Below, piece after piece: positions 308-60,560 of a stretch of DNA of 64,000 nt. The stretch's first letter is position 1. The number at the start of each line of letters is the position of its first letter. This stretch comes from Pelagomonas calceolata (Eukaryota). Both the position numbers and the translations under genes were made by a program. The DNA lies in the NCBI GenBank assembly GCA_918797485.1, contig CAKKNE010000005.1, positions 2,604,001 to 2,668,000 of the forward strand. The letters are read 5' to 3'. Below the pieces are notes generated by a model. It saw only the letters and a list, made by a program, of their open reading frames with translations. It had not been told where the DNA came from and made no database searches.

Positions 308-330
308 CTAGTGACTTACAGACCGCTAGC
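308..330. promoter_or_regulatory. CTAG-bounded intergenic motif
   Basis: CTAGTGACTTACAGACCGCTAGC. Confidence 0.7.
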
Positions 331-440
331 AAATCGGCAGCGCGCCAGGGTTCAACGCGCGGAGGACGGAGGTGTGGCAGCTCACCGGAGCGCATAAAGC
401 CACGTCGACAAAACAACAGGCGTCAAAATTCCACAAGAAG

Positions 441-2792
441 TTAAAACCCCCCGACCGCGTCCGCGAAGCCGGCCGGCGCCCACGTCGCCAGGGCCCAGGC
501 GCCGTCGGCCGCGCCGCTCTTCGCCGCCTCGAGCTCGGCGGCCACGGCCTCGAGCTCGTCGGCCTCCAGCGCCACGTCGAGCAACGTGCTCGCGGGCGCC
601 ACGTCCCGGCGGAAGGAGCACGAGAGCGTGGACGCGAGCGCGACGACGGAACCTGGTGCCGCGGCGCCCAGCGCCGCCGCGTGGCCGCCCGTCGCCAGCA
701 CGCGCACGCCGAGCGACTGAGGACCGGAAACTAACCGAAACGCCGTCGCGTTCGACGCCGAGGCCTCCCGCGCGAGCAGGGACGCGACGAACGCAGTAGC
801 TGACGCATCATCATCCAAAAGCCGGTGGCGGTACAACGCCGCGTCGGCGCCGCCGAAAACATACCCAACATGAGTACCACACGCCTGGCACGCCAGCCGC
901 CGCGCCAGCCGCCCGCCGCACTGCTGGTGGCAGCCCCGCGGCGCCTCGAGCGTCTTCGCGCCGATTTTTAGGAGCGACGTGTCCGCGCCGCAGAGCCGGA
1001 TCGAGCAGCGCCCGACGAAGCGTTCTCCATCAATAGGTACGGTCGCCGCGCTCTGCAGGACGGGCTGGGCCGTGTCGCAGGACAGCGCCGCGGCGACCTC
1101 GTCGGGCTCGAGGTCGCCGTCGCGGACGCGCGCGGTCGCCTCGCGGCGCGGGGCTAGTGGCGCGGAGCAGGCCCTACAGGCCGGTGCCGCCGGCGGTTCT
1201 GTAATTGTGCCGTGGTCCTCAAAAATAACCGTGGCGGCCTCGGCGTCGCGCGCGCCGGGGGCGAGCCGTCTCAATCTAGAATACGGCAGGCGCACGCGTA
1301 GGAATTTCGCGCCGTCCTGTTTGACCTTGGACGCCTGACATTTGTTTGGTTCCAACTGCGCGGGCAGGCGCAGCGTCTCGCGCGTGGTCGGCGAGGCGAG
1401 CTCGACGCGGTCGCCGTCCACGCTCAGCTCGCCGCGGCCGTCGGGCAGCGTGAGCACGAAGGTCCGGATGCCGGGCAGGTGCTCGACGCGGCCGCCGGCG
1501 AAGGTATAGGGCTCTTTGGTTTTTGTTGTTGTCGGCGCGGCGGCCGGCGCGGGCGGCGTCGGTGGGTCGGCCGGCTTCGGCGGCGTTGGCGGAGGCACAG
1601 GCGCGGCGACAGGCGGCGCCGCGGGCGGCGCGGCGCGGGCCAGGGCCTGGCGGGTCGCTTTGGAAGCGAAGCCGCCGACGGCCGCCGCGGCCTTCGGGGG
1701 AGGCGGCGGCGCGACGGTGGCCGACGCGGCAGCTGGAGGCGCCTTCGGGGCCGCGGGCGGCGGCGGCGCGGCGGAAATGGACGGCGCGGCCCAGACGGCC
1801 GCTTCCTTCGCGGCCCAGTCGACGCGGACGACGCGCGGCGCCTCGCAGAGCATCGTACCGGCCCGCGTCTCGAGGCGGCAGCTCAGGACCGTCGGGGAGG
1901 GACACGTCGACCGCGTCGCCGCGCGCTTGTCGCCCTGGCGCCTGTAGTGCGCGCAGGCAGCCGTGGCCTCGGAGAGCGATATTTTGAGGTCCTCTTCCAC
2001 GTACTCCGACGCGAGCGGCTCCTCGTCCAGAAACGCCGCGTCCCGCAGCGTGACCACGAACCCCGCGTCCTCGTCCGGGAGCGGGTCGAGCGATATGGTC
2101 AGAGCGACCTCGCGGCCCGCGAACCTTGTTGAGGTGACGTCGATCGTGCCGTCATACGAAACCTCCTTTTCAGGTTGCACGGAAGGCGCGTCCGGGGCGA
2201 GCCCCGCCTGCAGCTGCTCGGGGTCGATGGCCGCCGTCGCCGCCTTGCACTTCTCGCCCAGTTCTTTAGCTCGGCGCTGGGCCGCCTCGACGTCACTACT
2301 GCGTTTCGAGACGCTCTCGGCCGCTTCCATAGCTTTGGCCCGCGCGTCGGCCGCCTCGCGCTGCGCCGCCTCGAGCTCGGCCCGGGCCTCGGCGATGGCG
2401 CGGCGCGCGGCGGTCTCGCGCTGCGACGCCTTCTTCGTCGACACCTTGGCCGTCATTTGGAGCTGGCGCCGGAGCTTGTCCATCTCCTTCTCCGCGGCTC
2501 GGGCAGCACTCAACGCCTCGGCCGCGGAGAGCGACGACACGTGGGCGCCGAGCTCGCGTTCCAAATCGCGGACGGCCTTCGGGTCCGGCGGCGGCGCGCG
2601 GCCCCTCCTCAATGTTTCGGGCGCGGCGAGCGCCTGGCGCTCAACGTCGGAGTCGTCGCTGTCGACGTCGAAGCGCGAGTAGTCGAGGCCGTACTTTTTG
2701 GGCACGGGCTGCTTCGGCGCGGCCGGCGGCACGAAGAGGTTCGTCGTTTTTTGTTGGCGGTGCTTGCCTTTTAGCTTTTTGTTGTTGACCAT
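441..2792 (-). CDS. Coiled-coil/Pro-rich protein with C-terminal UBE3D/HECT_2-like Cys domain (putative E3 ligase)
   Basis: 783 aa ORF; C-terminal CRACSAPL...LACQACGTHVG...LYRHRL pattern resembles UBE3D; N-terminal DYSRFDVDSDD motif. Confidence 0.55.
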   Translation of the reverse strand: MVNNKKLKGKHRQQKTTNLFVPPAAPKQPVPKKYGLDYSRFDVDSDDSDVERQALAAPETLRRGRAPPPDPKAVRDLERELGAHVSSLSAAEALSAARAAEKEMDKLRRQLQMTAKVSTKKASQRETAARRAIAEARAELEAAQREAADARAKAMEAAESVSKRSSDVEAAQRRAKELGEKCKAATAAIDPEQLQAGLAPDAPSVQPEKEVSYDGTIDVTSTRFAGREVALTISLDPLPDEDAGFVVTLRDAAFLDEEPLASEYVEEDLKISLSEATAACAHYRRQGDKRAATRSTCPSPTVLSCRLETRAGTMLCEAPRVVRVDWAAKEAAVWAAPSISAAPPPPAAPKAPPAAASATVAPPPPPKAAAAVGGFASKATRQALARAAPPAAPPVAAPVPPPTPPKPADPPTPPAPAAAPTTTKTKEPYTFAGGRVEHLPGIRTFVLTLPDGRGELSVDGDRVELASPTTRETLRLPAQLEPNKCQASKVKQDGAKFLRVRLPYSRLRRLAPGARDAEAATVIFEDHGTITEPPAAPACRACSAPLAPRREATARVRDGDLEPDEVAAALSCDTAQPVLQSAATVPIDGERFVGRCSIRLCGADTSLLKIGAKTLEAPRGCHQQCGGRLARRLACQACGTHVGYVFGGADAALYRHRLLDDDASATAFVASLLAREASASNATAFRLVSGPQSLGVRVLATGGHAAALGAAAPGSVVALASTLSCSFRRDVAPASTLLDVALEADELEAVAAELEAAKSGAADGAWALATWAPAGFADAVGGF

Positions 2793-2995
2793 GGCTGCCG
2801 CTTATCGGCTGCTGCCGCTTTGCCGCTGTCCAAGGCTATCTCCCCAGGCCTTGGCAGAGCTCGATCTAAGGGTTTCCGGGGCGCAGGGCTCAGCGCTCCG
2901 TGTGTAACTATTGTATTCAAAGCTGGTGCTGATCCAGCGCGCAAACAACGCCGATCAGCCGCCTCGGCTGCTGTTTTTTTTTTCTTTTTAGCTTG

Positions 2996-3014
2996 CTAGT
3001 GCCTTAACGCTAGC
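2996..3014. promoter_or_regulatory. CTAG-bounded intergenic motif (short variant)
   Basis: CTAGTGCCTTAACGCTAGC. Confidence 0.6.
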
Positions 3015-3026
3015 TAGTTCCGTGCA

Positions 3027-6000
3027 AATAACTCTCCCGCGCTCCGCGCGCACACGCTGCCCTTGGCCTTCTTGTGAGCTAAGTCGGGCAGCAATCCAGT
3101 TCAGAAGAGATGACGTCGCTTGCGCTGCAACGCGTTTTTGTGATCGAGATGCCTGTAGCTGGATTCTGCTGATCTGTGCTCCGCGTGCAAAATGAAGCGC
3201 GGTGCGGTCGCGGTCGACTCCGACGCGTCGGACTCGTCGCCTGCGGCAGACGAGGAACCGGGGGCAGCGGTGGCTGCCCCGCGGGCGCCGAGCGTAGACG
3301 GGGTGCCGGACGCGAGGACGGCGGGGGCGAAGAAGCCGCCGGCGCGAGGGCGTCCGCGTCAACGCGCGAGGCGAGACAAGGAAGGTGTGATGGAGGACCC
3401 GGACGGCACGGAGTGCGATGCTCCGAGGCAGCCGAAGGCAGATGCCTTGCGGGCCCTCTGCCGTGAGGCCCGCTCCACACGAGCACCGCCGCCGCCACCG
3501 GCGAGTCGGAGCCGAAGTGGACGGTCGCAGTCGCCGCCGCCGCGGCGGGCGCGTCGCGAGCGGCCCGTCGACTCGGGTCAGGCGTCGACGCCGGCCACGG
3601 CGCCGCCCAGACCGGCGCCTCTAGATACAAGACGAGCGGCCGAAGACGTGGGAGCTGTACGGCCGCCATCAGATCCGGCGCGGGGCCGGGATCCGACGCC
3701 TCGCGCTCTCCCGAGTGGTGGTATTGCCGAGTTCCGCGTCCCGGAGCAGAACGCCGCCGCCGCGAGTTGGGTACCCCAACACCCTAAACGTTTCAGCAGG
3801 GCGTCGCCGAGGCGCTCGCCTCGCGGACATCCCAGCTCGCCGCCCGCGGCGCCGCGGAAGAAGAAGCGGAGCGCGGAGAACACGGGGCCGGAGCGTACGC
3901 GCAGTCGGGCGCGATCCCGTCGATCGGCGGCTCCATCGCCGACTGGTAGGGGATTGATGGCCGCTTTTGTCCAAGGGAATAGTCTGCGGTGCCTCGAGCC
4001 TCGAGAGGGTGACCCCGAGCCCGCCGCGGGCGACGCCGCGGCCGCGCCGCCGCCGGCCGCTGACGCGACGGAGACGGCGCCCCCGCCGGTCGTGGGCGCG
4101 GCAGACGATCCCCCCGACGACGCCGATGAGCGGGCGCGGCGGGCGGGTCTCTTACTCGAGACGCCCGAGGAGCGTGCCGCGGCCGCCCGTCGGTCGCGCT
4201 CGCCGAGACGCGCGGCCGGCGCGGACAACGGGGTCCACGAGGTCGACGGCGACGACGCGAGCGACGCGGGCAGGTCGGTGGGTTCGGTCGAGTACAACGC
4301 GCACGCCGTCGACCGCCTGGACCGGCTCTTAGCGGGCCAGGAGTTCGACGACGAAGACGGATCGTGGCGCGTGAAACGGGTCATGTTCGACGCGGAATTC
4401 GAGGTTCCAGTGGCGCTCTACTACCGCGCGACGCTCGACGAGGTACCCGCCGATGGCGTGTGCGAATCCTCCGCCGCGTCCGAGGTGCGGGGCTTGGTAC
4501 GAAACACGACGCGCGTCCGGAGAGAAGACGCGCGGCGGGCGGCTCTGGAGATGTCGAAGGCCGAGCGTTTGGAGGCGAGGGCGCTCCCGAAATTGCCGGC
4601 CATTAGGGTGCCGGCGGCGAGCGAACAATTCACGGCCATCGACGGCGTCGACTCGATGGACATCTTCGTCTGTAAGCTTCACGGCATCGCGAGCGTGCCG
4701 AGGTCTCTGGTTAGCCGGTGGGCTCGCGCGATGGCGAAGACGCTTCGCTGGGTGATCGACGCGGAGGACGCCGGCGACGACGACCGGCTCAGGCGCGCTT
4801 TGCTCTGGCGTAAGGGTCTCGCTCAATTCCTGCTACGGCGCGTTAAAGGGGGTGGGGCGCGCAAGCGGAATCGCCGCCACGCCGTGTTCCACCGCCGTTT
4901 TTTGATGTTCGAGAACGGGGCCTACGCGGCGCTACTCGCGTCGTGGGCCTCGGACCTCGAGGCCGCCAAGCGGCGCGGCCCGGGGTCGCACAGGGTCCAG
5001 GACGACGCGGCGAAGGTCAAACGGGCCGAAGAGCTCGTGCGGGCCGGCGAACTATCGAAGGCGAACAGCGCGCTGTTGAGCGAGGGGACGCTGGACCCGA
5101 GAAACCCTGCGGTTTATAGGAAACTTAAGGAAAAGCACCCGACGAGGAAGGCGGACGTCGACTTCGACCTCGAGAAGGACTTCCGGCTCGCCGACGAGCT
5201 GCGACCCGATGTGAAGTTCGCGAAGCTGCGGCGCAAGGCCGGCGTCGGGCCAGACGGTTGGAAGAACGAGTACCTGAGCGTGCTCGACCGCGCGCACGAC
5301 GATCCTGACGCGAAGCCGGTTATGGAATTGTGGAAGGAGTTCGCGCGGCTCGAGTCGAACGGCCTTTTCCCGGCCTGGTGGTACTACGGGCAGACGGCCG
5401 TCCGCCTCGTCGCGCTGAACAAAGGAAACGGCGACCCGCGGCCGATTTGCGTGGGAAATAGCGACCGACGCGCTGTCGCCAAGGCCATCGTCGCGGAGGT
5501 TAAGGAAGCCGCGGCGGAGGCGTTGGCCCCCGTGCAGATGGGCGTGGGAGTGAAGGACGGCGCCGCGAAGCTCACCTTCTCTCTGCGCGCGAGCCTCGAG
5601 CTCCACCCCGACTGGGTGTTAATTTTAGTAGATAAGAAGAACGCGTTCAACGAGATCCATCGAGCGGCGTGCATCCGCGCGTTGGCGGCGACGCCTGGCT
5701 TCAAGGGTATCGCGCGCTACGCGTACTTGCACCTCGCGCCGAAGTCGCCCATCGTGATCGGACAGGGGGAGATAGCCGATTTTGCCTCGGAGGAGGGCGG
5801 CCAACAAGGCGACGGCGTCTTCCCGTTGGCGTACTCGGTGGGCTCGTACGCGTCCTGCAAGGCGCTCGATGCGGACGCCGCCGCCGAGGGCGGCATGGCA
5901 CGCTTTTTCTTCGACGATGGTTATATCCACGCGCCGGCCGAAGTCGCCTTTGACATCCTCGCGAAGTACGAGAACGCGATCCTGGTCGACGGCGAAGTCC

Positions 6001-6864
6001 CCCAACGAAGGAAGTGCGAGGTTTATAGTCCGACGTGGGGCGCCGGCCTCGGATGCGCGCCGGAGGTCGCGTCGAGGAAGGTTGCGACCTTCCGCGACGC
6101 CGCGTCGCAGGAAGAGGTGCCCGTCGACACGGACGACGAGGAGTGGGATAATGCCCCCGTCGCTCGCCGGGTGGCCGAGGCGGCGCCGTGGGATGAGGCG
6201 CGGATAGCCGCGGAATATGCCGTGGAGCGCGCCAGAGCCGCCGTGGCGACGAGGGCCGAGCGCGGTAACGCGCCGGTTGATAGGCGCGCCCGTCTCGTGA
6301 ACGGGCAGTACCTGAAAAAGGCCCACAACCTGGATGTGAAGTACAACTCGGTCGGGGGCGTCGAGTGTGGTCCGATGGAGAACACCATTAGGAGCCGCGG
6401 CGAGGTTTGTGGTCTCGCGTTCGGCAGCGCCGGCGAGGCGTCCGCGGACGTCCATCGCCTCGCACGCGTCTGCGCCGACGAGATCGCCGGCAAGCAGTTC
6501 CGAAAGGGCCTGATCGACGCTGATTCGGTCGAGGACGCGGCGGCCATGATTCAGGCCCAGATCTACCGGGAGTGGGGCGTGGCGATTGTCAAGGGTCGGG
6601 CCGAGTGTCTACTGGCTTTGTTGGAATGTACGGTACCGAACGCGTCGCCGCGGTCCAAGGTCGCCTGCGGGAAGTCGCGGGACAAGTTGATTGAACGGGC
6701 GAACGTTGCACATTGTTCGGGGGGGTTTGCCGAGGCGGTTCAGCTTAGAAGGAGGTACGCTGTTATGAAAGAAGCGGCCCGCGCCCGCCGCCGATGAATC
6801 GGCGACGCGCGGTGTCTCCCCCCCAGGGGCTCCGCCCACTAGTCCTAGCACCGTAACATCGACT
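3027..6864 (+). mobile_element. CRE-clade-like non-LTR retrotransposon (boundaries tentative)
   Basis: Single RT ORF flanked by GTTCCGTGCA at 3017-3026 and 6865-6874 (candidate TSD); no poly(A) tail seen. Confidence 0.55.
3192..6797 (+). CDS. Reverse transcriptase ORF of a CRE-like non-LTR retroelement, apparently internally deleted
   Basis: RT motifs RPICVG, QMGVG, DKKNAFN, GGQQGDG, FFDD; C-terminal GLAFGSAGEAS.DVH resembling the tail of an RLE endonuclease region. Confidence 0.85.
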   Translation: MKRGAVAVDSDASDSSPAADEEPGAAVAAPRAPSVDGVPDARTAGAKKPPARGRPRQRARRDKEGVMEDPDGTECDAPRQPKADALRALCREARSTRAPPPPPASRSRSGRSQSPPPRRARRERPVDSGQASTPATAPPRPAPLDTRRAAEDVGAVRPPSDPARGRDPTPRALPSGGIAEFRVPEQNAAAASWVPQHPKRFSRASPRRSPRGHPSSPPAAPRKKKRSAENTGPERTRSRARSRRSAAPSPTGRGLMAAFVQGNSLRCLEPREGDPEPAAGDAAAAPPPAADATETAPPPVVGAADDPPDDADERARRAGLLLETPEERAAAARRSRSPRRAAGADNGVHEVDGDDASDAGRSVGSVEYNAHAVDRLDRLLAGQEFDDEDGSWRVKRVMFDAEFEVPVALYYRATLDEVPADGVCESSAASEVRGLVRNTTRVRREDARRAALEMSKAERLEARALPKLPAIRVPAASEQFTAIDGVDSMDIFVCKLHGIASVPRSLVSRWARAMAKTLRWVIDAEDAGDDDRLRRALLWRKGLAQFLLRRVKGGGARKRNRRHAVFHRRFLMFENGAYAALLASWASDLEAAKRRGPGSHRVQDDAAKVKRAEELVRAGELSKANSALLSEGTLDPRNPAVYRKLKEKHPTRKADVDFDLEKDFRLADELRPDVKFAKLRRKAGVGPDGWKNEYLSVLDRAHDDPDAKPVMELWKEFARLESNGLFPAWWYYGQTAVRLVALNKGNGDPRPICVGNSDRRAVAKAIVAEVKEAAAEALAPVQMGVGVKDGAAKLTFSLRASLELHPDWVLILVDKKNAFNEIHRAACIRALAATPGFKGIARYAYLHLAPKSPIVIGQGEIADFASEEGGQQGDGVFPLAYSVGSYASCKALDADAAAEGGMARFFFDDGYIHAPAEVAFDILAKYENAILVDGEVPQRRKCEVYSPTWGAGLGCAPEVASRKVATFRDAASQEEVPVDTDDEEWDNAPVARRVAEAAPWDEARIAAEYAVERARAAVATRAERGNAPVDRRARLVNGQYLKKAHNLDVKYNSVGGVECGPMENTIRSRGEVCGLAFGSAGEASADVHRLARVCADEIAGKQFRKGLIDADSVEDAAAMIQAQIYREWGVAIVKGRAECLLALLECTVPNASPRSKVACGKSRDKLIERANVAHCSGGFAEAVQLRRRYAVMKEAARARRR

Positions 6865-8123: not shown

Positions 8124-8645
8124 CGTTGTTCTGTCGTCGCGGCGGCGGCGGCGACTGGTGCTGTGGAGAGCTTTTTTTGTGTGGGAGGCTGTGGCTCTGT
8201 GGTTCCGCGAACGTTGTTGGCTCGTTGCCGGTTGTTGAGAGGAGTTGTAAAACGACCGACAAGGGGTGAAACGCCTTGTCCTGTGCTCCCGCGGGCGACA
8301 AATGCGCTGTGCTGCCGCACTCAGCAGGCCTCGGTCGACTGCCGCGTTGCGCCGCACTCGTCCGTTTCCCGTCGTCTCGCGGAGCGATCAGACCAGAAAA
8401 AGCAAACAAAGGCCGGGCCCTATCGTGCGGGTCGACAAGCTGCATCAAGCTGCAGAGATTGAGGTGGCCAAAGACCGGCTGTGCTCCGCACCTGCGCTCA
8501 TTCGCGTCGCGCAGACAAGCATTTCTGATTAGTTGGTGCCCTGCCTTCACGCGAGGCAACGACTTTTGCTACGCGCACCACAGCGAGCAAGATCACGCAC
8601 AGCTGTGGTGAGAGCAGCACCAGACCGCGACGCGCAACAGCAGCC

Positions 8646-12725: not shown

Positions 12726-13415
12726 GGTTGCGATGGCCTGCGGTGAGCGTGGGGGTTATCCTGTAGCGGTGAGACGTCGCGGGTTCCCGCCCTGTATATG
12801 ATTTGAATTTGTGGGCAGGAAATCGCCGCCGGCGTAATGCGGCGCGACCGTCTGGGTGTCTTGATGTCCTTGCGGCGCGTCGTGGCTGCAGCGGGTCTGG
12901 CGCTCCGCATAGAGAGCACTGTTTCTCGCTGAGGCTGCCCCAGCGCGCACACATGGCCGTTGCCCGCCCGGTTTTCGACGGCGCGGGCGAGCATGGGCTG
13001 CGAACGTGCTATCGTTTTTTTCTCGCGCGGATTGGTGCGGTATTCAAGAAGATTGGGGCGTGTAAGGGACCAGCCTCTGAGCGCGCCTTTGCGAGAGCCC
13101 AGCTTTTTTGAAATTTTGGAAACATAGCCATCGGTGCAGCGAGCAGACTTAGACTACAGCTCAGCAACCTTGGCACGGCATGCGCGCACTGCTAGTGCTA
13201 GTATCTGTCTTACTAGCTACCTCGGCCTTCGGTGTCTGAACAGACACGCGCTCTCGCAGTGTTGCAAAAAAGTGCAGCCCGCGTCCGCCGCATCATTCCT
13301 TGAGTCACGGGCGCACGGACCAGCAGCAGCGGCGCGCGATATAACCGGTGCACACTGCACAAAGAGTGGGGTCGCATCTAGGAAGAAAGCACCACACAGG
13401 CCGACGGACCGCACC

Positions 13416-18847: not shown

Positions 18848-18870
18848 CTAGTGTGTTACTGGACGCTAGC
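18848..18870. promoter_or_regulatory. CTAG-bounded intergenic motif
   Basis: CTAGTGTGTTACTGGACGCTAGC. Confidence 0.7.
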
Positions 18871-23065: not shown

Positions 23066-23085
23066 GCTAGGCATTAACACACTAG
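23066..23085. promoter_or_regulatory. CTAG-bounded intergenic motif (reverse, short variant)
   Basis: GCTAGGCATTAACACACTAG. Confidence 0.55.
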
Positions 23086-24518: not shown

Positions 24519-24541
24519 GCTAGCGGTCTGTAACATACTAG
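24519..24541. promoter_or_regulatory. CTAG-bounded intergenic motif (reverse)
   Basis: GCTAGCGGTCTGTAACATACTAG. Confidence 0.7.
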
Positions 24542-28415: not shown

Positions 28416-28436
28416 CTAGTGTCTTACGCCGCTAGC
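28416..28436. promoter_or_regulatory. CTAG-bounded intergenic motif
   Basis: CTAGTGTCTTACGCCGCTAGC. Confidence 0.7.
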
Positions 28437-32194: not shown

Positions 32195-32216
32195 GCTAGC
32201 GTCTGTAAGACACTAG
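32195..32216. promoter_or_regulatory. CTAG-bounded intergenic motif (reverse)
   Basis: GCTAGCGTCTGTAAGACACTAG. Confidence 0.7.
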
Positions 32217-37975: not shown

Positions 37976-37996
37976 CTAGTATGTCGATACGCTAGC
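37976..37996. promoter_or_regulatory. CTAG-bounded intergenic motif (degenerate)
   Basis: CTAGTATGTCGATACGCTAGC. Confidence 0.5.
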
Positions 37997-39304: not shown

Positions 39305-39329
39305 CTAGTGCCTTACAGTGGCCGCTAGC
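39305..39329. promoter_or_regulatory. CTAG-bounded intergenic motif
   Basis: CTAGTGCCTTACAGTGGCCGCTAGC. Confidence 0.65.
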
Positions 39330-39692
39330 TAACTTGCCGTGCATCGATGTGCGGCGGTGATTACGCAGCGTAATTGTTGTTAGCGGTTGGCCACTGCAAA
39401 GGGTCTGCAACGAAGCGCTCGAGGCAAGACGCTGGTACAAATTGCAAGCAACCGCACTCTCGGCAGCACACTTGCAGCTAATCACAGCAAAAAAGGCAAC
39501 CCGCCAGCGCCGGCAAAAGCAATCAAAACGCTGTAATTTGCCGCCACCTTTTCCATTCATGATTCGAGCGGGCCTTCCTTAACACATTCAGCGGAGAGAA
39601 ACCGTCCATATGCTGGGCGCCGGGGGACGCGCCGCCATCGCGGCTCCGGAATCAGCGCGACAACAACGCAGGCACACGATGTTTTAATAGAA

Positions 39693-47589: not shown

Positions 47590-47803
47590 GGTGCTTGTTG
47601 TGTTGGTGCTTGTTGTGCGGCTGCGCTTGCTTGTGCGACGACGGGAGGTCGACGGCGGGAAATTTCTGAGATGACCTCGGCCAGTTAAACTACTGAGAGC
47701 CTAGTAGCTTAAACAGTCGGCGATCGAGGAATATGCATCCCAAAGGGCTGCCCATCGAGCATGGGCTGCCACTGCAATGGTGCGAGGTCTCCAAAATGTG
47801 TTC

Positions 47804-47827
47804 CTAGTGTCTATACACGACGCTAGC
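47804..47827. promoter_or_regulatory. CTAG-bounded intergenic motif
   Basis: CTAGTGTCTATACACGACGCTAGC. Confidence 0.7.
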
Positions 47828-48054
47828 TAGCTCGGCGGCGCGGCCCTCGAGCTTGGGACGCTTTGGTGCGCTTGCAGGCGTGTCAGGGCGCTTCCGTACA
47901 TCACATCGATCGTGCAAGCGGCCAGCATTAAAAGCCGTGCACGTATCAGGCTCCAAAGCCCTTTTACAGCCTCTCCTCTCACAACCTCTCACAGCCTCTC
48001 ACAGCGAGCTGCACCCTGCCCGCTGCACAGAAATCACTGCTCGGTTGCAAAATA

Positions 48055-48846: not shown

Positions 48847-48875
48847 AAGATGTTGTGTCACAGGATATACACAGC

Positions 48876-50087: not shown

Positions 50088-50110
50088 GCTAGCGTCGTGT
50101 AACACACTAG
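50088..50110. promoter_or_regulatory. CTAG-bounded intergenic motif (reverse)
   Basis: GCTAGCGTCGTGTAACACACTAG. Confidence 0.7.
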
Positions 50111-50312
50111 CAAGCAAAAATTGTCAACCCGCGCGGAGAACGCATACGCTGGCGAGCAAGCGCAAAAATAGCTGGTAATCCTAAGTTGCGGCGGCTCGCG
50201 GCGGCTTGCGACGAAACCTCCACCTCTCCCTCTCCCTCTCCTCTTGTATTTTTCCACAAATCCTCCTCGGGATCGCCCTAGCCTCGCGACGGGAGTTAGA
50301 AACGACGAGACC

Positions 50313-50978: not shown

Positions 50979-50999
50979 TCAACTAAACCACAATAATTA

Positions 51000-52359
51000 T
51001 TACGTCGCCGCGGGCGCCTGCACGGCCTTCCGCTTCCTAGTGCGGGTATAAGTGTAGTCGTCCCAGTTCAGCTTGAGGTAGTCCGTGCGTATGGCCTCAT
51101 TGTCCGTCTCCTGGTGGACCTTGACCTTGTCGCCCGCGCCCGGCGGCTTGGGGGCCTTCCTCAAAAACAGCCCGAGCAACTTCCGACCTGCATCATCCAG
51201 TAAATTCAAATTCTCGCCGAACACGTCCGTGATCGCCTTCTTCGACAAATCGTCGAGCGTCTCGTCGTCGGGGTCGGGGCCCGCGGGTGCGGGCGCCGGT
51301 TTCTCCGGCTTCGGCTTCGGGGGCTCCTTGACGCGCCCGTCTTTGCCGACCTGTGAGGAAATCAACCAGTGAGTTAGGTTAGTGGGGCGCCCGAAATTTG
51401 ATTTCCACACAGTTCCCGACGGGCTTGATCTCGGGGGCATCATCCAACATGACGACGGCGCGCCGCTTCTGCGTCGGCTTGAAGCGCGGCTTGTCGCCCG
51501 AGCGACCGCGGCCGCGGCCCAGGCGGCCCTGGACACCACCGCGGCCCCGCGCCTGTTGTGGAGCGCTCCGAGGCGCCTGTCGCGGCGCGGACCGCTGCGC
51601 CATCAATTCCCTTACTTCTTCATCGGTGCGAAAGTTGCAGTGCTTCTCGAATTCGGGTAGAGGTGGTAAGACCAACTCCGACTTCCATCTATCGTCAAAC
51701 AATCCAACCGGGTCCCACCGCCGAGGCCCCGCCCGGTCCTCATCCGACAACAAATGCCCAAATTTCCGCCGCAGCTCTTCATCAAAGTCGTCCGCGACTT
51801 CCTTGATGCCAAAGGCCTTGGCCGCACTTCCGGCCGTCGCGCGGACCCACGCGTCCGGATCCACCCGAGCTTGCTCGATTTTGCGCTTGATGATGTGCGG
51901 CTGCGGTAATTCTTCTTCAGGCAATTTGCATAAATCGAGTAACTCCTTGCACGTGTCGTGCGAGTGTTGGGACCGGACCATGGGCACGGGATGTTTCTGG
52001 TAGTGGGGGTCCGTCAGCGTCGCCATGAAGACCTTCTCCATCGTTGCGCGCATCTTGAGGACCTCCTCGGAGGGCTCCTCGTACCCACCATTCGGCGGCG
52101 GCGGCGGCTTCATTTTTTCGTACTCGGCGTCGCCCTCCTTCGCCTGGAGATCCAAGGCGGCCTGCTTCGCGGCCTTTCTTGCCTCGTTCGCGTCGAGCGC
52201 GGCCATGAATTTGGCATCAGCTTCTTCTTGGGTTTCGTTGCCGTACAAGTCCTCGTCGTCGTCTTGCTCCATTGGTTGTGGCGGTGGTACAGCTTCTTTC
52301 TTGGCGTGCGTCGGCGGCGCGCCGGGCTGCATCCACGGCGGCGGCGTCGCGTCGGCCAT
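51000..52359 (-). CDS. Probable NELF-A-like protein; exons 52359-51421 and 51350-51000 (429 aa)
   Basis: Splicing out 51351-51420 joins EIKP to VGKDGR in frame; ARVDPDAWV, AVVMLD and the C-terminal ...KLNWDDYTYTRTRK resemble NELF-A motifs. Confidence 0.55.
51351..51412. mobile_element. Introner-type element (62 bp, 15-bp TIRs, 8-bp TSD)
   Basis: CTGTGAGGAAATCAA (51351-51365) and TTGATTTCCACACAG (51398-51412), 14/15 inverted; flanks TTGCCGAC and TTCCCGAC, 7/8 identical. Confidence 0.85.
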
Positions 52360-52637
52360 CGCTTCGGTGCCGTGCGCTGGATTGGTGTTCGAGCAGTGCG
52401 CCGCGCTGCGGCGGCTGCGACTACTGGCTTTGTGGTGTCAGCGCTGCGGCGCGCTGCGGCTGCGCGCGGCGGCTGCGCACTCGCTGCTGGAAAGCTGGGC
52501 TCGCGTACTACTGGCTTTGAAGAGCGGAGCTTGCACAAGCAGCGCTGGGCCAGCAGCAGCGATGTGAGGCGTGCGTATGATGAGCTGTTGATGCCACGCA
52601 GCGATAGTAGGAAGCAAAAAACTACGCGCCGCATTAA

Positions 52638-52660
52638 GCTAGCGTCCTGTAAGACACTAG
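52638..52660. promoter_or_regulatory. CTAG-bounded intergenic motif (reverse)
   Basis: GCTAGCGTCCTGTAAGACACTAG. Confidence 0.7.
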
Positions 52661-52849
52661 CAAGCCAAAACGCACCAAAAAAATAGCCAGCGATTCAGAC
52701 TCACGGTCTACGCGGCCGCACGGGGTTACCGCGACGGCGGACCAATTGTGGCGAGATCGTGAGGAGACGGTAGCGCCGCGGCAATCACGAGAGGCAAATT
52801 TTTAATTTTTCAAGGACCTGTGTGAGGTCAGCCAGCGCGACGCCGCGCG

Positions 52850-53176
52850 ATGATCCGCCACCTGTGCCTGCTCGCCGCCGCGGCGGCACCAACAACACAG
52901 AACGCCACGCGCCAGCTCGACGCCTACGAGCCGCCGCCGACCGATTTAAGTAGGGCGTGCGCGTCGTGGCGACCAGATAGAGATGGAATTGATAGAGTGC
53001 GCACGATTCGGGCGGGCAACTTCGTGAACCTGGCGCACGCGACGGGCGGCGCCTTCGTCGCAAGTGTCTCAAAGGTCCGCCGCCCCCCGAAAGGCCAGAA
53101 CTGCCGCGTTTTATACGAGTTGGAGGTCATATGTCGCGTCTCTGCTGCGCGAGTTTGTCCCTCTGCATCTCGATAA
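52850..53176 (+). pseudogene. Truncated paralog of the N-terminus of the 53934-56645 secreted protein
   Basis: Signal peptide then RTIRAG...KVRRPPKG..CRVLYELEVIC versus RAVRHG...KKRRPPIG...CHALYDLEVKVC. Confidence 0.55.
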
Positions 53177-53686
53177 ATTTGTAGGCTATCTTGCGTTCCT
53201 GCTCGTGGTCGTCGCGTTCGCGCGTGGTCTCCTCGAGCTTGAGCGTGGTCTCCCGGAGCTTGCGCGTGGTCTCCTCGAGCTTCCACTGCAAGCACGCGAC
53301 CGCATAATTCGGATCCGCCTCATCTGCGCCGCAGACTGCGCGAGCTCGCGGCGGAGCCACGGAGCGGGCTGCTGCCTGGACGGCGCGGTGGCCGACGGAG
53401 CCGACCGCTGCGGCCCTTGGGCCGCCGCCAACGACGATAATTGTTCGTCCGAGGGCATTTCATCGCACGTGGTCTTATAGTGGTCGGTGTCGATCGTCGA
53501 GTAGAGATAACCCTCCGAGATATGCGTTTCGACGTGGGCTTCGGTTTCAGCACGACTCAAGTTTAGGGTCGTGCTCACATCCGCTAAAGACAAGCCGTCC
53601 ACGATCGTGCTGTGATCGACATGCAGCTGCAGGAGTCGTTTCAAAATGGCTCTTTGGGCGCCTTTGTTTCGAACCTTCGTCGTCAT
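53127..53686 (-). pseudogene. RPA32 C-terminal winged-helix-like segment fused across a frameshift to a short coiled coil
   Basis: GLSLADV...HISEGYLYSTIDTDHYKTT; no OB fold; frame change near 53360. Confidence 0.55.
53221..53282. repeat. 21-bp tandem repeat x3
   Basis: cgcgtggtctcctcgagcttg / agcgtggtctcccggagcttg / cgcgtggtctcctcgagctt; encodes KLEETTR heptads on the minus strand. Confidence 0.85.
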
Positions 53687-53773
53687 CGTAGTCAGATCTC
53701 CCGGAGAATCCTCCAATCTCGTTTTGATCCCCTTTTGCCGTCACCGCTTAACATCGGCCTCTTTCGAGTGAAG

Positions 53774-53796
53774 CTAGTGTCTTACACGACGCTAGC
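53774..53796. promoter_or_regulatory. CTAG-bounded intergenic motif
   Basis: CTAGTGTCTTACACGACGCTAGC. Confidence 0.7.
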
Positions 53797-53933
53797 CTGG
53801 CCAGGCTCGCCTCGCAATTTTTTTGAGCAGCTCCAGTCGCTGCGTTGCAGTCGCGAGTAGCTCATTCGAAGACATTGATGGTGCGCTGCAGCGAGCCGGG
53901 CTCGATTTTGACGCCTAAGGGTAGCTAGCCACA

Positions 53934-56645
53934 ATGATCGGCTGGTCAATCCTGCTTGCTGCGGCCCTGGCCGCGGCGTCTGATACGGACGACGCCTGCG
54001 CGGTGGAACAGCGGCGCGGCGCAGCAGCCATCCGAGCGGTGCGCCACGGCCGCGTCGCGGACCGCGCGGAAGCGCGGGTCGGCTCGAAAGTGGTAACAGC
54101 GTACAAGAAGCGGCGCCCGCCGATCGGACGGGACGGCGAATTGCTGTGCCACGCCTTGTATGACCTCGAGGTCAAGGTCTGCGGCGGCGCCTCCACCTCA
54201 ATCAAGGCCCACGCGCCGGAGCGACAGTGCCCGCGCGAAGGCCAGCGAGGTAGAAGAAGGGGCGCGAACGGGCCCGAGAATCCCAGAGTACTCCCCACAA
54301 CTCATGTCGACGGCTTCGTCGTCCTCTACACCGACTGGTCCGAAAGGAACGGGACTTATGAAAGATCAAAATTCATCGCGCACGGGACCATCAACGGGGA
54401 CGGGCCCTCCCTTAGTACACCTTCCATCGTGGATGCGCCCTACGGCGACTGGGCGCCCTTTTTGTATGACGATGTTTTATATGCGCACACTTACCTAGAT
54501 TACCTCGGCGACGCGGTGACGTCGAGACTTGGCGACCTCCACTCATACAACTGCCCCGGCGCTGGGAAAGCCCTGCGCAAGGCCTTGGGCGGAGCCACGC
54601 CTTTATTTGACTCCGTGCGCATCGAACCGGGCTCGAACGCTATATTAGTAAACAACGAGTACGTCGCAATCGGCAAAACCGTCAGGCATTTAGGCCACGA
54701 GGTGCAGCTCAAAGCGCTGTTCGCCTACGCCTTCTCTCCAAAGCCGCCCTTCTGTATCACAAAAACGTCGCCGGAGTTCCACGCGCCCGTGCCGCATGCA
54801 TCTTCCTCAGAAGCCTTCGACGCGTTGATTCCAAGAAGGAGCGACCCGGGGAAGCATCGCGAGGGCGTGCAGACGCCCTTTTCGTTGATAGTGGTGGACG
54901 ACGGGCTGCGGCTGGCCTTCACGCGCAAGCACTCGGCCTACTCTTTAGTCCTGAACACGTCGACGCTATTCAAGGATTCACGCCGTTTGAAGTACGGTGG
55001 CAAGTCTACAATCGCCCAATACCTCAAGGCGGTCTACCCAGCTATGATTGAACAAGATAATACAAAACTCGTAAACCTCTACGAGTCGCTCGACTACTTT
55101 TATCGAGGCCCGGCGTTACCTTATATACCAAAAGGCGTCTACTACTCGGCGAACGACGCCACCACGGATATCGTACCTACACAAAAAGCGATTGAACGTG
55201 CTCAACAAGGCGAGGAGCACGGCGTGTTATATGGATCATATATCCGGTGGAAGGCCATGTTAAGGCGCGTCTCACAAAAGGAGGAGGACCTCAAGTCTTC
55301 ATGGGGAGCTCGATTGGGCCCGGCGCCGTCGTGGACCCACGCTAGTGCCGCGGTGAAGTACCCCTTGTATCCGCTCGGGTTATCTACAACACAAGGTGCC
55401 GTGCTAGGTAGGCCGGACAACCCTCTTGATGGAAGGTGGGACGTCCCTACGAGAAGGAAGAAATTCACACACCTCAAAACGGGAGAATACGTCGAGATAG
55501 AGCAGTACGGAGGCCCGGACTGGGTCCTCAGTGAATTCCCGATCACCTCGCGGGGCATCGCCGGCCTCTTCTGCAACGTCTGGAAGGGCACCGGTCTAGG
55601 CCTTAAAGTGGTCGCTCCTTTTGTTTCCCGGAGCAAGGGTGCGGCGGTCGCCGATCTGTTGAGGGAGGTGGGCCGGCGGCAGGATTTAACTGGTGGCGAG
55701 GACTACGTGAGTGCGCTGGCTGCCTTGTCTGGTGTTGGTTCTCCAGACATAGAAAGGAGGCGCCTCGACGACCAACGGACGTTGGGCGTCGGCCATTGGG
55801 TGAAGAGCCTCTTTAAGCAGCAGAAGACACCGCGGTCGCACGAAGACAGAGCCGTGCACCTCGCCGTCGGTTTTTTAGCACTCCCAATACCCTGCGCGAC
55901 GAGCTGGGACGCGATCGATGCGAGGTGGCGCCGCTGGCGCGAGTCCGCCGTCGATGCCACGGAAGCGGCGTTCGCGCCGCCCTCTGGCCGATGGCGCGCG
56001 AAGCGGCCCGTCTCGGAACTCTTCGACGAGCTAGCCTTAAGAAAGGAGGCGCCTGGCAACGCGTCTCTAGCTGCTTTACACTGGATCTACGGGCTCTGCT
56101 CCAAAAGCCCATACTATTCCGGGCCGGCCAATAAAAGGTGCGCGGCGGAAAGACGTAGAGGTAATGACGGAGAAGCTTGTAAGAGACGCTGGCTCGCCTG
56201 GGACAACCTGCTCATGGTTTTGAGTTGCGCGATCGGCTCGAAAACACTTATTCTGGATGCGTCGCCCAACGACAACGGATTGTTCCACGAGGAGCTCATC
56301 GATTATGATGTTCCTGGCGCGTGGGCGACGATCGACGACGGGAAGTCGCTGAATCCTCTCTCCGAATGTCTGGCGCCTTTTGATGACGGTCGGGCGGCGC
56401 CGTCGCGTCAAGATGTATTAGAGCACTGGCGCGCTACTCACAAGTTCGGGCGCGTCGACCCTTTGAAGGGTACGGCGGCACCTTGTGACTTGATAGGAAG
56501 CGACGGCACTCAGTTAGGAGAGCACAACGGCGGGGGCTACCTCGCGTGCAAGGACTCGCTCTCGGAGTCCCACGCGTTGTGTGTGCGGGACCGGGAGCGC
56601 ACGAAACGAGCTGCTGGTTCAAGGCGGGCGCCCGGTTGTGGTTAA
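53934..56645 (+). CDS. Secreted protein, N-terminal half possibly a beta-propeller glycosyltransferase/glycosidase-like domain
   Basis: Signal peptide; DWAPF and YAFSPKPPFCITKTSPEF motifs seen in such proteins. Confidence 0.55.
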   Translation: MIGWSILLAAALAAASDTDDACAVEQRRGAAAIRAVRHGRVADRAEARVGSKVVTAYKKRRPPIGRDGELLCHALYDLEVKVCGGASTSIKAHAPERQCPREGQRGRRRGANGPENPRVLPTTHVDGFVVLYTDWSERNGTYERSKFIAHGTINGDGPSLSTPSIVDAPYGDWAPFLYDDVLYAHTYLDYLGDAVTSRLGDLHSYNCPGAGKALRKALGGATPLFDSVRIEPGSNAILVNNEYVAIGKTVRHLGHEVQLKALFAYAFSPKPPFCITKTSPEFHAPVPHASSSEAFDALIPRRSDPGKHREGVQTPFSLIVVDDGLRLAFTRKHSAYSLVLNTSTLFKDSRRLKYGGKSTIAQYLKAVYPAMIEQDNTKLVNLYESLDYFYRGPALPYIPKGVYYSANDATTDIVPTQKAIERAQQGEEHGVLYGSYIRWKAMLRRVSQKEEDLKSSWGARLGPAPSWTHASAAVKYPLYPLGLSTTQGAVLGRPDNPLDGRWDVPTRRKKFTHLKTGEYVEIEQYGGPDWVLSEFPITSRGIAGLFCNVWKGTGLGLKVVAPFVSRSKGAAVADLLREVGRRQDLTGGEDYVSALAALSGVGSPDIERRRLDDQRTLGVGHWVKSLFKQQKTPRSHEDRAVHLAVGFLALPIPCATSWDAIDARWRRWRESAVDATEAAFAPPSGRWRAKRPVSELFDELALRKEAPGNASLAALHWIYGLCSKSPYYSGPANKRCAAERRRGNDGEACKRRWLAWDNLLMVLSCAIGSKTLILDASPNDNGLFHEELIDYDVPGAWATIDDGKSLNPLSECLAPFDDGRAAPSRQDVLEHWRATHKFGRVDPLKGTAAPCDLIGSDGTQLGEHNGGGYLACKDSLSESHALCVRDRERTKRAAGSRRAPGCG

Positions 56646-56670
56646 GTATTACTGTTACACACACATCACA

Positions 56671-57945
56671 TCAGGCGAACACCTTCACGACAGAGGCAAT
56701 CGGGGCGCGGCAAATGGGACACCGCTCGCCCCTCCTTTCTAATCTAGAAGCACATCGGTAGCAGGCGCACATGTGCCCGCACGGCGCCAGCACGGCGTCG
56801 CGCCTCCTTACTAAGCAGACGGCGCAGTCCGTCGTAGAACCCTCATTGTTTTCAATGTCTGGCGGCCCGCACTTGAGTAAGGCCGCATTCGCCTCTTCCA
56901 CGGCCTTCTTCAGAGCGGCAGAATCCCCAAACTTGCAGCCAAACGCCAGATCCACGTCGACGCAGCGCCGCACGAACCTCCGATTGTCCTCTGGGGGCGC
57001 GTGCAATGCCAACCGTAGCCCGTATTCGGTGGTTGAGGGTGTGAGTCGAGCTAGTCGTCGTAAAGCGGCATCCGCGGCTAGCCGAGAAGCCGGCTGCGGC
57101 TCGACACGCGTTAGTAGTTCTGTGCGGTTTTCATAGGTGAGCAAATCGTGAACCAAGGCGTGTTCGGTTACTGTGAGTTGATCCACATTCTCGACGGCGA
57201 CGGCCAGATCCAAACACGCGTAGCCTAGCAAATTCCTTCGTCTCACTCTGACAACTTCCGCGTGCGCGTCGATGGTCACCACTTCATAAGCTGGCTGGCA
57301 CATAGCGTAGACGAGGATGATCAGGCAGACTAGTACAAGTAATTCATCCGTGCCCGAGTCGTCGTACTTGAGCGATAACGCTGCGGGTCCTATCGACGCC
57401 TCATCGAGGTAAGTTTGGATCTGGCGGAGCGCGTGGGACGCGCGCTCGATGTCGTCAAACACGTGTACTTTACGTCTCATGCCGGCCTCGTCCGTGACCA
57501 CCAAGGTAGATGATACATGCCCCGGCCGCTTCTTGAGGGCCTGTCGTCTTGGAGGGTGGTCCGCGTCCAGGTCCGCGTGGAGCGCCTCCGCGAGGAGTCG
57601 TAACCGCGTCGCGTTCGCCGTGGTGCCGCTCTTCTGGCGCGTCCTTAACGCGTTCGAGACCTCGAGAACGATATCTGCCGACGCCACCTCAAACGTGCTC
57701 CGCAGCCGCTTCTCCCAGAGGCGGTCGACGCCGCGCGGGCTGCTCGTGACGACGCAGTCGTTGTCCTCTCGTTTGTTGTGTCGCTCGTGCGTCGCGCAGC
57801 GCAGCACATCTCTATGATGCTTCGAGTCGGCGGTGAGAGCCGCGATGAGTGCGATGAATGCGCATATTACTGTGGGGCGCACTTTGACGTGCCGCAGCTC
57901 TAATCTGCCTCCACCTTTGTGTTCTAGTCTTGGGCCGACGAGCAT
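56671..57945 (-). CDS. Membrane protein with C-terminal C3HC4 RING finger
   Basis: CAVC...LAPCGHMCACYRC...CPICR; two hydrophobic segments. Confidence 0.8.
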   Translation of the reverse strand: MLVGPRLEHKGGGRLELRHVKVRPTVICAFIALIAALTADSKHHRDVLRCATHERHNKREDNDCVVTSSPRGVDRLWEKRLRSTFEVASADIVLEVSNALRTRQKSGTTANATRLRLLAEALHADLDADHPPRRQALKKRPGHVSSTLVVTDEAGMRRKVHVFDDIERASHALRQIQTYLDEASIGPAALSLKYDDSGTDELLVLVCLIILVYAMCQPAYEVVTIDAHAEVVRVRRRNLLGYACLDLAVAVENVDQLTVTEHALVHDLLTYENRTELLTRVEPQPASRLAADAALRRLARLTPSTTEYGLRLALHAPPEDNRRFVRRCVDVDLAFGCKFGDSAALKKAVEEANAALLKCGPPDIENNEGSTTDCAVCLVRRRDAVLAPCGHMCACYRCASRLERRGERCPICRAPIASVVKVFA

Positions 57946-58123
57946 CTTTGCCCTGTCTGCTCTGCCTCCTAGTTTATCTGTTTGCTGTTGATCGGCGTCG
58001 CCAGGCGTCGCCAGGCTTTGCGCGCAGCGAGTTTGCTGAACAGGGAGCACACTGCGTTAGCGCCAGGCCTTGGAAGCCAGCTCTAAACAGCCTTTACTGC
58101 CGCAAAACAGCTCTTGCTCTTTT

Positions 58124-58146
58124 CTAGTGTCTTGCATACCGCTAGC
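58124..58146. promoter_or_regulatory. CTAG-bounded intergenic motif
   Basis: CTAGTGTCTTGCATACCGCTAGC. Confidence 0.7.
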
Positions 58147-58303
58147 TCGGCTAATTTGCAAATTAATTTGCAAGCTATAGCGGGCGCTCGCGGCGTTCGG
58201 CGCATTTAGATTTCGTCATCATTACCCACGTTACTGATACCAACCGGTTTCACACAGAGCGATCGGTGCCCAGCATCTACTGGAGAGAGATCACTGTAAC
58301 AAC

Positions 58304-59335
58304 ATGTTTGGACTTGTCAGGACGGGCCTGGATAAACTTAAGGCTTGGGTCTCGGGAGAAGCGGGTGATTATGATTGGGAGGAAGCGCATGCTAAATATC
58401 TCTCTTTCCTCACGCCGGGGCCCTTTCAGCGGGCAGTCGCCGGCGGCGACGTCGAACTAGTCCGCGAAATGCTCGCCCGCGGCGAGGACCCAAACGAGCT
58501 AGACGCTCCGGCGGCGCGCGTGATAGGCGACGGGATCGAGCTGGCTGGCGGCTTAGACGCGATCGAATGCGCCATGGCCATGCTCAACCACAGGAGGCGA
58601 CCGGAGGACGCCGACGCTGTGCGAAATATCTTCGCTTGCATCGAACTTTGTCTCGACGCCGGCGCCCTCCCCGACGGTCCTACGAGAGAGAGATGGGAAA
58701 ATACACCGCTTGGTTTAGCGGTAGAACAGGGCCGGCCCGAGTTTGTACGGCTTTTCCTCTCGGCCGGAGCCGACCCGAATGCGCCGGCGGACCCCAAAGG
58801 AAACACGATACTGCATCACGCTTGTAGATTGGGGGGGAACCGTGCAACGTACGAAATTGTTCGACTGCTACTGGCGGCCGGCGCCGATTACACGGCACGG
58901 ATCAATCCGCTGCACGGCCAGATCAGGGCACTTATTTTTGAAACTCCTTTTGGGATAGCGGTCACCTTCGGGTATCACCGCCTGTGGCCCCTTTTCCTCC
59001 GAGCCGGTGCTGATGTTCCGAACTTCTGGAGAGGGTTCATGGAAACTTCACGCTGCCCCGAGAAGGCGCAGCGCTACGAGTATCTGCGCATGGTCGAGGC
59101 GGCCGGCGGCTTCCAGGCCTACGAGAAGGCGCACGCGAAGGCGCTCGCGGCGACGCTCGCGAAGAAGTTCCCCGCGCACATCCCCGAGGAAGTATTCCCG
59201 CGCGTCGTCGCGTTCTGGGCCCACACGGGCTTCTACGGTTCGGTGGCAGCCGTCGCCGTGCTGGCCGCGGAGACGAATCCCCGGACCAACCGGGGCAATT
59301 TGCTACGAAATCTCTGCGGAGCTATTAGGGCCTAA
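58304..59335 (+). CDS. Ankyrin repeat protein
   Basis: TPLGLAVEQG...LSAGADPN, GNTILHHAC...LLLAAGAD. Confidence 0.85.
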   Translation: MFGLVRTGLDKLKAWVSGEAGDYDWEEAHAKYLSFLTPGPFQRAVAGGDVELVREMLARGEDPNELDAPAARVIGDGIELAGGLDAIECAMAMLNHRRRPEDADAVRNIFACIELCLDAGALPDGPTRERWENTPLGLAVEQGRPEFVRLFLSAGADPNAPADPKGNTILHHACRLGGNRATYEIVRLLLAAGADYTARINPLHGQIRALIFETPFGIAVTFGYHRLWPLFLRAGADVPNFWRGFMETSRCPEKAQRYEYLRMVEAAGGFQAYEKAHAKALAATLAKKFPAHIPEEVFPRVVAFWAHTGFYGSVAAVAVLAAETNPRTNRGNLLRNLCGAIRA

Positions 59336-59394
59336 GCACCATACACAATGACTTATTCAATCGATAGCGACCCCCCGACGCCATCGCCGCGCCC

Positions 59395-60360
59395 TCACAG
59401 CTCGCCCCGCGCCGCCGCCCGCCTCTCAGCATCGCCATGGTCGACGCCGGGCAGGTCGCACCACCGGTGCTCGCAGTCGGGCTCGTAGTAGCCCGTCCCC
59501 GTGAGCTGCAGCCTATCATAGGCGCCGTCGTCCGGGACGTGGAACCCTTCCGAGCCCCACCACTTTTCGGCCAACGCCCGCGCGTCCTCCATGCGCAGGC
59601 TCCAATCAATAGGTCTATAATGGACGAAGAGCGACGTGTACCATTTTCCTTCCAACGGCCGCGGCCGCCCGTGGATGCACTTCGCGCTCTCGTAAAAGAG
59701 CATCTCGCCCGGCTGCAGGTCGACCTCCACACTCCTCCCATCATAGCCTTCGATCACGATCGGCCACGGCTCCGCATCCCTATCAACATGGACTATGGCA
59801 CTGATAACATGCGTCTCGAGCTTGTCCGTGTGCATGGTCAGCGTGTTGCCCGGTCGATATATCCTCAATCCATACGCGTTCGACGCCCGCAGCTTCGTTT
59901 GGGACCACTCTTCGTGCATCGGCCGCAGGTCCTCCATGATCTCATTCGCCAATCTCCCGAGATCCACAAAACCGGCAACCTCCCCCGAGATCTGGTCCAC
60001 CTTATGTTCTGTCCTCTGTTGATCGAAGCCCGCAACGAGCGTCGCGTTCAGCTTCTCGTGGACGTGTCTTGGGGTCTTCACGACCTCATAGCCCACACTC
60101 GTAAAGTTCTTCACCAACAGACCACTCACAGCTAGATTCATCGCCGCGTCCCAGCGCTCCTGGGAGCTTTCGATCCTCCTCACTTGTGCTAATCTGTAAT
60201 CTAATCTCTTGCGCCACATGTGCGTCTCGGGGATCCACTGACCGTACTTTTTCGCTATAGGGTCGCGCTTCTTGTGGCTTTTGCTGACCGCGGCGTCGAG
60301 CCAGGGCTCGGCGGTTGCTTCGAGCGCTACGAGCGCTAGCGTCGCGAGCGCGCGCCGCAT
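59395..60360 (-). CDS. Secretory-pathway 2OG-Fe(II) oxygenase (prolyl-hydroxylase-like)
   Basis: YGLRIY...MHTD...HGRP (HxD...H triad); signal peptide; C-terminal RGEL. Confidence 0.8.
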   Translation of the reverse strand: MRRALATLALVALEATAEPWLDAAVSKSHKKRDPIAKKYGQWIPETHMWRKRLDYRLAQVRRIESSQERWDAAMNLAVSGLLVKNFTSVGYEVVKTPRHVHEKLNATLVAGFDQQRTEHKVDQISGEVAGFVDLGRLANEIMEDLRPMHEEWSQTKLRASNAYGLRIYRPGNTLTMHTDKLETHVISAIVHVDRDAEPWPIVIEGYDGRSVEVDLQPGEMLFYESAKCIHGRPRPLEGKWYTSLFVHYRPIDWSLRMEDARALAEKWWGSEGFHVPDDGAYDRLQLTGTGYYEPDCEHRWCDLPGVDHGDAERRAAARGEL

Positions 60361-60537
60361 CCTACGCTGTCGGCTCTGCGCTGTATGTCTGTCTGTATGT
60401 GGCTGGCGACCGCTGCGGCTGTGATTCTCGACAGGCCGCGTCGACAGCGAGGGACTGGAGCGTCAGCTCCTATCCAACTGTGCGCGCGTGCGTCGTAAAA
60501 GCTGCCAAGGCTGGCAAAAAAACAGCAAAAATAATGA

Positions 60538-60560
60538 GCTAGCGGTCTGTAAGACACTAG
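60538..60560. promoter_or_regulatory. CTAG-bounded intergenic motif (reverse)
   Basis: GCTAGCGGTCTGTAAGACACTAG. Confidence 0.7.

Follow-up and report, generated by a model that had tools for sequence, protein, structure and literature searches.

A recurrent two-block element between divergent genes of Pelagomonas calceolata and its predicted role at bidirectional core promoters

The Drosophila sites DRE/DREF, BEAF-32 and Motif 1/M1BP are found near the starts of broadly expressed, unrelated genes and in close head-to-head gene pairs, where initiation is TATA-less. In yeast, Reb1, Abf1 and Rap1 sites are abundant in a compact genome and located upstream of unrelated, often divergent genes, and these general regulatory factors are thought to exclude nucleosomes and to act as roadblocks. 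The TATA box and the fission-yeast HomolD box lie at a roughly fixed distance of ~30–45 bp upstream of the start, and the vertebrate NRF1, ZNF143, GABP and YY1 sites are enriched in head-to-head promoters; NRF1 recognises a palindrome, and the site of ZNF143 is long (~18–20 bp). Several of these traits recur in a 19–25-bp DNA element that we analysed in a 64,000-nucleotide stretch of the Pelagomonas calceolata genome (contig CAKKNE010000005.1, positions 2,604,001 to 2,668,000), hereafter called the window, where it occupies most gaps between divergent genes and is predicted to be the binding site of a general promoter factor.

The element is nevertheless distinct from each of these systems. 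The Drosophila sites are 8–12 bp long and unrelated in sequence, whereas the element has two blocks, extends to ~29 bp with its conserved flanks, occurs once per gap midway between two starts, and belongs to an alga with a secondary plastid. The yeast sites are shorter (7–13 bp) and lie further from the starts at variable distances. The TATA and HomolD boxes act in one direction on a single start site, whereas the element is flanked by starts on either side and has three times their length. Each of the vertebrate sites is confined to a minority of promoters, in CpG islands with dispersed initiation, whereas the element is present in 12/15 head-to-head gaps of the window. Its resemblance to the Reb1-type, fly and vertebrate classes is functional, and its resemblance to the TATA box is one of positional role. 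A likeness of parts of the motif to the yeast Abf1 and Reb1 sites was also considered and rejected, as it is partial and is lost in the commonest variant of the element. Literature searches with the motif letters, which returned only unrelated probe and primer papers, and with the organism name combined with promoter words found no published description, supplements and subscription journals being outside their scope. The words 'motif' and 'promoter' are used 0 times in the available part of the Pelagomonas genome preprint, and further papers naming Pelagomonas contain nothing on the element. The element is new to the literature searched, and its kind is already known from other systems.

The consensus reads (GCTTG)CTAGTGTCTTACA-N2-4-CGCTAGC(T), and small insertions and deletions (indels) between its two blocks, a long left one and a short right one, make the copies differ in length. 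A first-pass annotation of the window had listed 15 copies plus a degenerate one at 13198–13217, and our sequence check confirmed all of them at their positions (Table 1). The length range of 19–25 bp given there was reproduced on the verified copies, as was the use of both orientations, with nine of the 15 copies on the plus strand and six on the minus strand. The GCTTG extension, reported there for several copies, is present at 2996, 28416, 50088 and 52638; it recurs in the metagenome copies described below and is absent from the pattern with which they were searched. We found one more degenerate copy, at 47701, beyond the earlier list, and a single isolated left half-site within coding sequence, at 42405. 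A fixed-length search with up to three mismatches (≤3) recovered seven copies, compared with 0 in 100 dinucleotide shuffles, and the two-block pattern with spacer indels recovered 12 copies, compared with five matches summed over 200 shuffles of the non-coding DNA. The non-coding DNA of the window yielded no second recurrent long motif besides GC-rich repeats and A/T runs. One such run, GCAAAAAA, is confined to non-coding DNA (8 occurrences, versus 0 in coding DNA), and several of these adjoin motifs.

The window is GC-rich (0.59–0.69) and very compact. In a gene map built on codon bias, it holds 35 long, mostly intron-free open reading frames (ORFs) arranged in alternating head-to-head and tail-to-tail pairs. 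This composition and gene density agree with the figures in the part of the Pelagomonas genome preprint that was available (63% GC, 1.9-kb genes, 11% intergenic DNA, and introner elements). Although ATG-to-stop coding sequence accounts for 78% of the window in this map, it is overlapped by none of the 16 copies (P ~2.5e-11 under uniform placement), and none of the 15 tail-to-tail gaps of the 64-kb window contains a copy. Among the occupied head-to-head gaps, one holds the degenerate copy 13198. Copies 308, 37976, 39305 and 52638 are located elsewhere, in tandem or unclear gaps. The first-pass annotation had stated that the element typically sits in upstream or divergent intervals and was not seen in coding sequence, and this placement is borne out; an equal density in coding sequence or in convergent 3' intervals was looked for and was not seen. 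The enrichment in head-to-head gaps concerns functionally unrelated genes, which is also in line with the earlier description. Pfam supports the Nup155-type nucleoporin, MOSC, endonuclease/exonuclease-phosphatase (EEP, CCR4-like) and RING assignments made there and adds SecA, ankyrin, MYND and EDRF1; the SecA of the window has a signal-peptide-like leader, in keeping with a pelagophyte.

To relate the element to transcripts, we used stranded poly(A) RNA-seq reads from one sample, with four runs covering 47000–61800 and two of these covering 22900–42800. The tabulated 'end' of the reads was taken to mark the 5' side of the RNA in either strand class because the 'begin' positions fall at known 3' ends: those at 48861 and 56650 lie just past the stops of minus-strand genes, and that at 37501 is where the coverage of a plus-strand gene stops. 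With this calibration, and among the ends listed, apparent mRNA 5' ends lie 17–42 bp outside the motif edge at six copies, a narrow preferred distance in a small sample that is not cap-selected. This is the positional relation to transcription start sites whose absence the first-pass annotation had named as one point that would speak against its proposal. At copies 32195 and 60538, the 5' ends flank the motif symmetrically on both sides, and the strand of the reads flips at motif 32195 (bins 31532–32195 versus 32196–32859). On either side, the motif centre lies ~28–53 bp upstream of the start, and the starts are ~30 bp outside each edge. All nine 5'-end clusters listed lie outside the motif edges, and therefore the motif represents upstream, untranscribed promoter DNA. 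One of these clusters, at 47666–47676, is 135 bp from copy 47804 and ~32 bp from the degenerate copy 47701.

The surroundings of copy 37976 show features of their own. The stretch 37600–39500 extends over 1.9 kb without a convincing ORF and contains a minus-strand RNA 5' end at 38668 as well as loose read ends, and the reads over 38048–38676 carry many fixed differences, as if they came from paralogous copies. The RNA coverage of the neighbouring Nup155-like gene ends near 37501, which is 86 bp before the open-frame stop at 37587, and the true 3' end or the frame of this gene may differ from the simple ORF.

The element is also found outside the window. An exact-pattern scan of metagenome contigs returned at least 124 stretches, from which 123 loci comprising 235 kb (GC 0.55–0.73) were analysed; the counts that follow are among the matches listed. 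Conservation extends to positions that were not part of the search pattern, namely TTG at −3 to −1 (70–75% of 133 copies), T at +1 (59% of 133 copies) and A at motif position 13 (80% of the 83 copies with a length of 23 bp), and because these unsearched positions are conserved, the matches are not due to chance. The commonest metagenome variant, …ACAGGCCGCTAGC, accounts for 21 copies and is rare in the window, a difference that suggests related populations or species. Locus ORFs were called with a codon model trained on the window. At loci with ORFs on both sides, 29 gaps are divergent, 18 tandem and 4 convergent (21, 13 and 3 of 37 with stricter ORF scores), and the copy falls within an ORF in 2 of 130 cases. 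The one-sided loci agree with this distribution, as the right ORF is on the plus strand in 17 cases versus 4 and the left ORF is on the minus strand in 16 versus 6. Viral contigs scanned with this pattern yielded 0 matches.

We observed no orientation rule in the divergent gaps of these loci (16 versus 13). The bias in the tandem gaps (13 versus 4, or 10 versus 3 with strict ORFs, p = 0.09 for the latter) is not significant, and the tandem copies of the window disagree with each other in orientation; a side asymmetry in the motif-to-ORF distance is not significant either (p = 0.21). No orthologues of the window promoters were present among the loci listed, and L027 carries a 52%-identical homologue of gene 48876–50123 without its 5' side. 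In one orthologous pair, L014 and L122, the motif is kept in 23 of 24 columns, compared with 55% for the other upstream DNA and 88% for the coding sequence. The same pair has two more conserved upstream islands (L014:1370–1660), a 22-bp block and a block containing CACGTG. Another pair, L056 (805–925) and L099, shares a near-identical 115-nt block 36 bp beyond the motif, and the remaining flanks differ. This block fits a transcription unit starting at the usual distance and could be a small multi-copy transcription unit; Rfam assigned it to no family and returned only below-threshold microRNA-like hairpins located away from the motif.

Taken together, the placement, the 5' ends, the unrelated neighbouring genes and the flanks without a repeat support the first-pass proposal that the element serves a putative general factor at bidirectional promoters rather than a pathway-specific one. 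We consider it probable, judging from the sequence and the mapped reads, that the element is the binding site of an abundant sequence-specific protein that nucleates bidirectional core promoters. This candidate protein would touch two blocks that each hold GCTAG, the 16-bp TTGCTAGTGTCTTACA and the 8-bp CGCTAGCT, and the spacer between them would tolerate a length change of ~2 bp. Once bound, it would bring the transcription machinery to either side of the element, recruiting or positioning initiation complexes ~45 bp to each side of the element's centre, and the element would do the job of a TATA box. In a further-reaching version, which we put forward tentatively, a ~28-bp lineage-specific word read by one predicted protein would act as the master promoter signal of a picoalga that is abundant worldwide, serving about three quarters of its genes. 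One copy would fire two genes with starts ~45 bp either side of its centre, a single symmetric nucleator would replace the logic of the TATA box and the initiator (Inr), and the reader may be a tamed transposase, since the ends of the word resemble terminal repeats.

The closest competitor is a site for a general regulatory or barrier factor of the Reb1/Abf1 or BEAF-32 kind, which would keep the gap free of nucleosomes, insulate the two genes and perhaps block read-through, while the starts would be set by flanking A/T runs or similar signals. We regard this as doubtful, though a real contender. The placement evidence for it is identical to that for a nucleator, and the motif also occurs in tandem 3'–5' gaps, both at 18/51 two-sided metagenome loci and at the window copies 308 and 52638. 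In addition, A/T-rich runs such as GCAAAAAA adjoin many copies, and AT content is 0.50 in the 10 bp that directly follow the motif on its right, compared with 0.40 for non-coding DNA overall. However, the 5' ends are nearer and more regular than is generally the case for yeast general-regulatory-factor sites, and no flanking signal occupies a fixed position, the information being ~0 beyond −5 and +1. The direct positioning of initiation by the bound protein is favoured because the 5'-end distances are narrow, and this is the sole lean in the present data. Several points weigh against the nucleator. A nucleosome-excluding factor that sits next to a separate initiation signal would also be compatible with the distance of 17–42 bp. 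Ordinary poly(A) RNA-seq of one sample, without cap selection, supplied the 5' ends, which amount to nine listed clusters, a small number, and the placement statistics come from one 64-kb sample. Three of the 15 head-to-head gaps (8388–8528, 15730–16035 and 44223–44720) have no copy, and copy 37976 has no adjoining 5' end, the nearest one listed, at 38668, being ~690 bp off. The metagenome loci were picked by the motif and not assigned to a taxon, which makes the motif logo partly circular, and the conservation between L014 and L122 is weak and partly circular for the same reason.

The other explanations that we weighed do not place a promoter protein at the centre, and we hold all of them to be very improbable. 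Quasi-palindromic ends (CTAG...CTAG), a high copy number and internal indels that vary the length could indicate functionless relics of a mobile element that inserts into promoters, such as solo terminal repeats, a miniature inverted-repeat transposable element (MITE) or excision footprints. In the 133 copies listed, however, common sequence reaches no further than 5 bp to the left and 1 bp to the right of the motif, and target-site duplications (TSDs) of k ≥3 are not in excess for any of 100 boundary choices, which led us to reject this origin; the longer shared flanks with TSDs of a MITE or a short interspersed element (SINE), which the first-pass annotation had singled out as contrary evidence, were thus looked for and not found. 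The presence of about one copy per 5' gap and 0 in coding or tail-to-tail DNA, together with the regular spacing to mRNA 5' ends, also argues against relics. A replication origin or recombination hotspot coinciding with promoters, to which we give just as little credence, would share the promoter-centred placement but gains no specific support from it, and one copy per ~4 kb is far denser than usual origins. The least credible of all is an RNA hairpin acting in 5' leaders. CTAGTG can pair with CGCTAG, including a G-U pair, to form 6–8 bp on one strand, but the nearby 5' ends listed all lie outside the motif on both sides, both orientations are in use, and the inner GTC/GAC pairing is absent from the commonest metagenome variant. 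As there was also no Rfam covariance match in the window at the gathering score, an RNA element was rejected.

Table 1. Copies of the element and related blocks in the window, with their strands and immediate context
Feature	Position	Strand	Context
Motif copy, 23 bp	308..330	+	111 bp past stop of minus-strand ORF 441-2801; left neighbour off window
Motif copy, 19 bp, with GCTTG	2996..3014	+	Head-to-head gap 2802-3158
Degenerate copy	13198..13217	.	Head-to-head gap; 5' of first ATG of ORF 13128-14042
Motif copy	18848..18870	+	Head-to-head gap 18707-19024
Motif copy, 20 bp, weaker right block	23066..23085	-	Head-to-head gap 22880-23138
Motif copy	24519..24541	-	Head-to-head gap; plus-strand mRNA 5' end 24558, 17 bp off edge
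Motif copy, 21 bp, with GCTTG	28416..28436	+	Head-to-head gap; 5' of first ATG of ORF 28404-29972
Motif copy, 22 bp	32195..32216	-	mRNA 5' ends 32153 (minus gene, 42 bp) and 32244 (plus gene, 28 bp)
Weaker copy, 21 bp	37976..37996	+	1.9-kb repeat-rich non-coding stretch; no adjoining mRNA 5' end seen
Motif copy, 25 bp	39305..39329	+	5' of first exon ending at intron 39493..39670, plus-strand gene
Degenerate left block	47701..47712	+	Minus-gene mRNA 5' end 47666-47676, ~32 bp away
Motif copy, 24 bp	47804..47827	+	Head-to-head gap 47701-47931
Motif copy, with GCTTG	50088..50110	-	Minus-gene mRNA 5' ends 50056 and 50063 (32 and 25 bp off edge)
Perfect-consensus copy, with GCTTG	52638..52660	-	5' of minus-strand ORF 51379-52437
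Perfect-consensus copy	53774..53796	+	5' of plus-strand ORF 53925-56645
Motif copy	58124..58146	+	Minus-gene mRNA 5' end 58091/58092 (32-33 bp off edge)
Motif copy	60538..60560	-	mRNA 5' ends 60502 (minus gene, 36 bp) and 60593 (plus gene, 33 bp)

Several other features of the window were recorded. A short multi-copy element is present at 51345–51416; hundreds of RNA reads match it alone, with flanks diverging on both sides, and L055 shares 67 bp with it at 81% identity. The element has an introner-like look, and a 70-nt intron is spliced from the same region (CT..AC on the plus strand, GT..AG on the minus strand). Within this region, almost every RNA read of the four runs has T instead of A at position 51356, which may stem from variation between strains or from reads that belong to further copies of the repeat. 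Another repeat, at 46127–46504, is located in an unusually long tail-to-tail gap (673 bp), shares 73–77% nucleotide identity with L002, L032 and L049, gives translated matches in several frames, and is possibly a mobile-element fragment. A backward junction from 61270 to 61221, each time with the same 22 additional letters, is carried by 8–33 reads per run and suggests that, compared with the assembly, the sequenced culture has a small duplication or insertion here. Finally, the ORF at 3159–6797 (1212 aa) has only a weak reverse-transcriptase match (RVT_1, E = 1.9e-4), below the Pfam cut-off, and might encode a telomerase-type protein. A 163-bp stretch covering its 3' end and the next gap (6688–6859) is 94% identical to part of the otherwise unrelated L072.

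If the predicted role is correct, the sequence alone would suffice to locate most promoters of a compact marine alga of ecological importance, and start sites and gene boundaries would become predictable. The element would provide a minimal bidirectional promoter of ~90 bp for genetic tools in a tool-poor group, and it would serve as a marker that assigns metagenome contigs to the lineage of this alga. At 19–25 bp, the site is long enough for direct capture of its predicted protein, and such a capture would make it testable how transcription is initiated in the 100–300-bp gaps of a very compact eukaryotic genome and how one site serves two genes.

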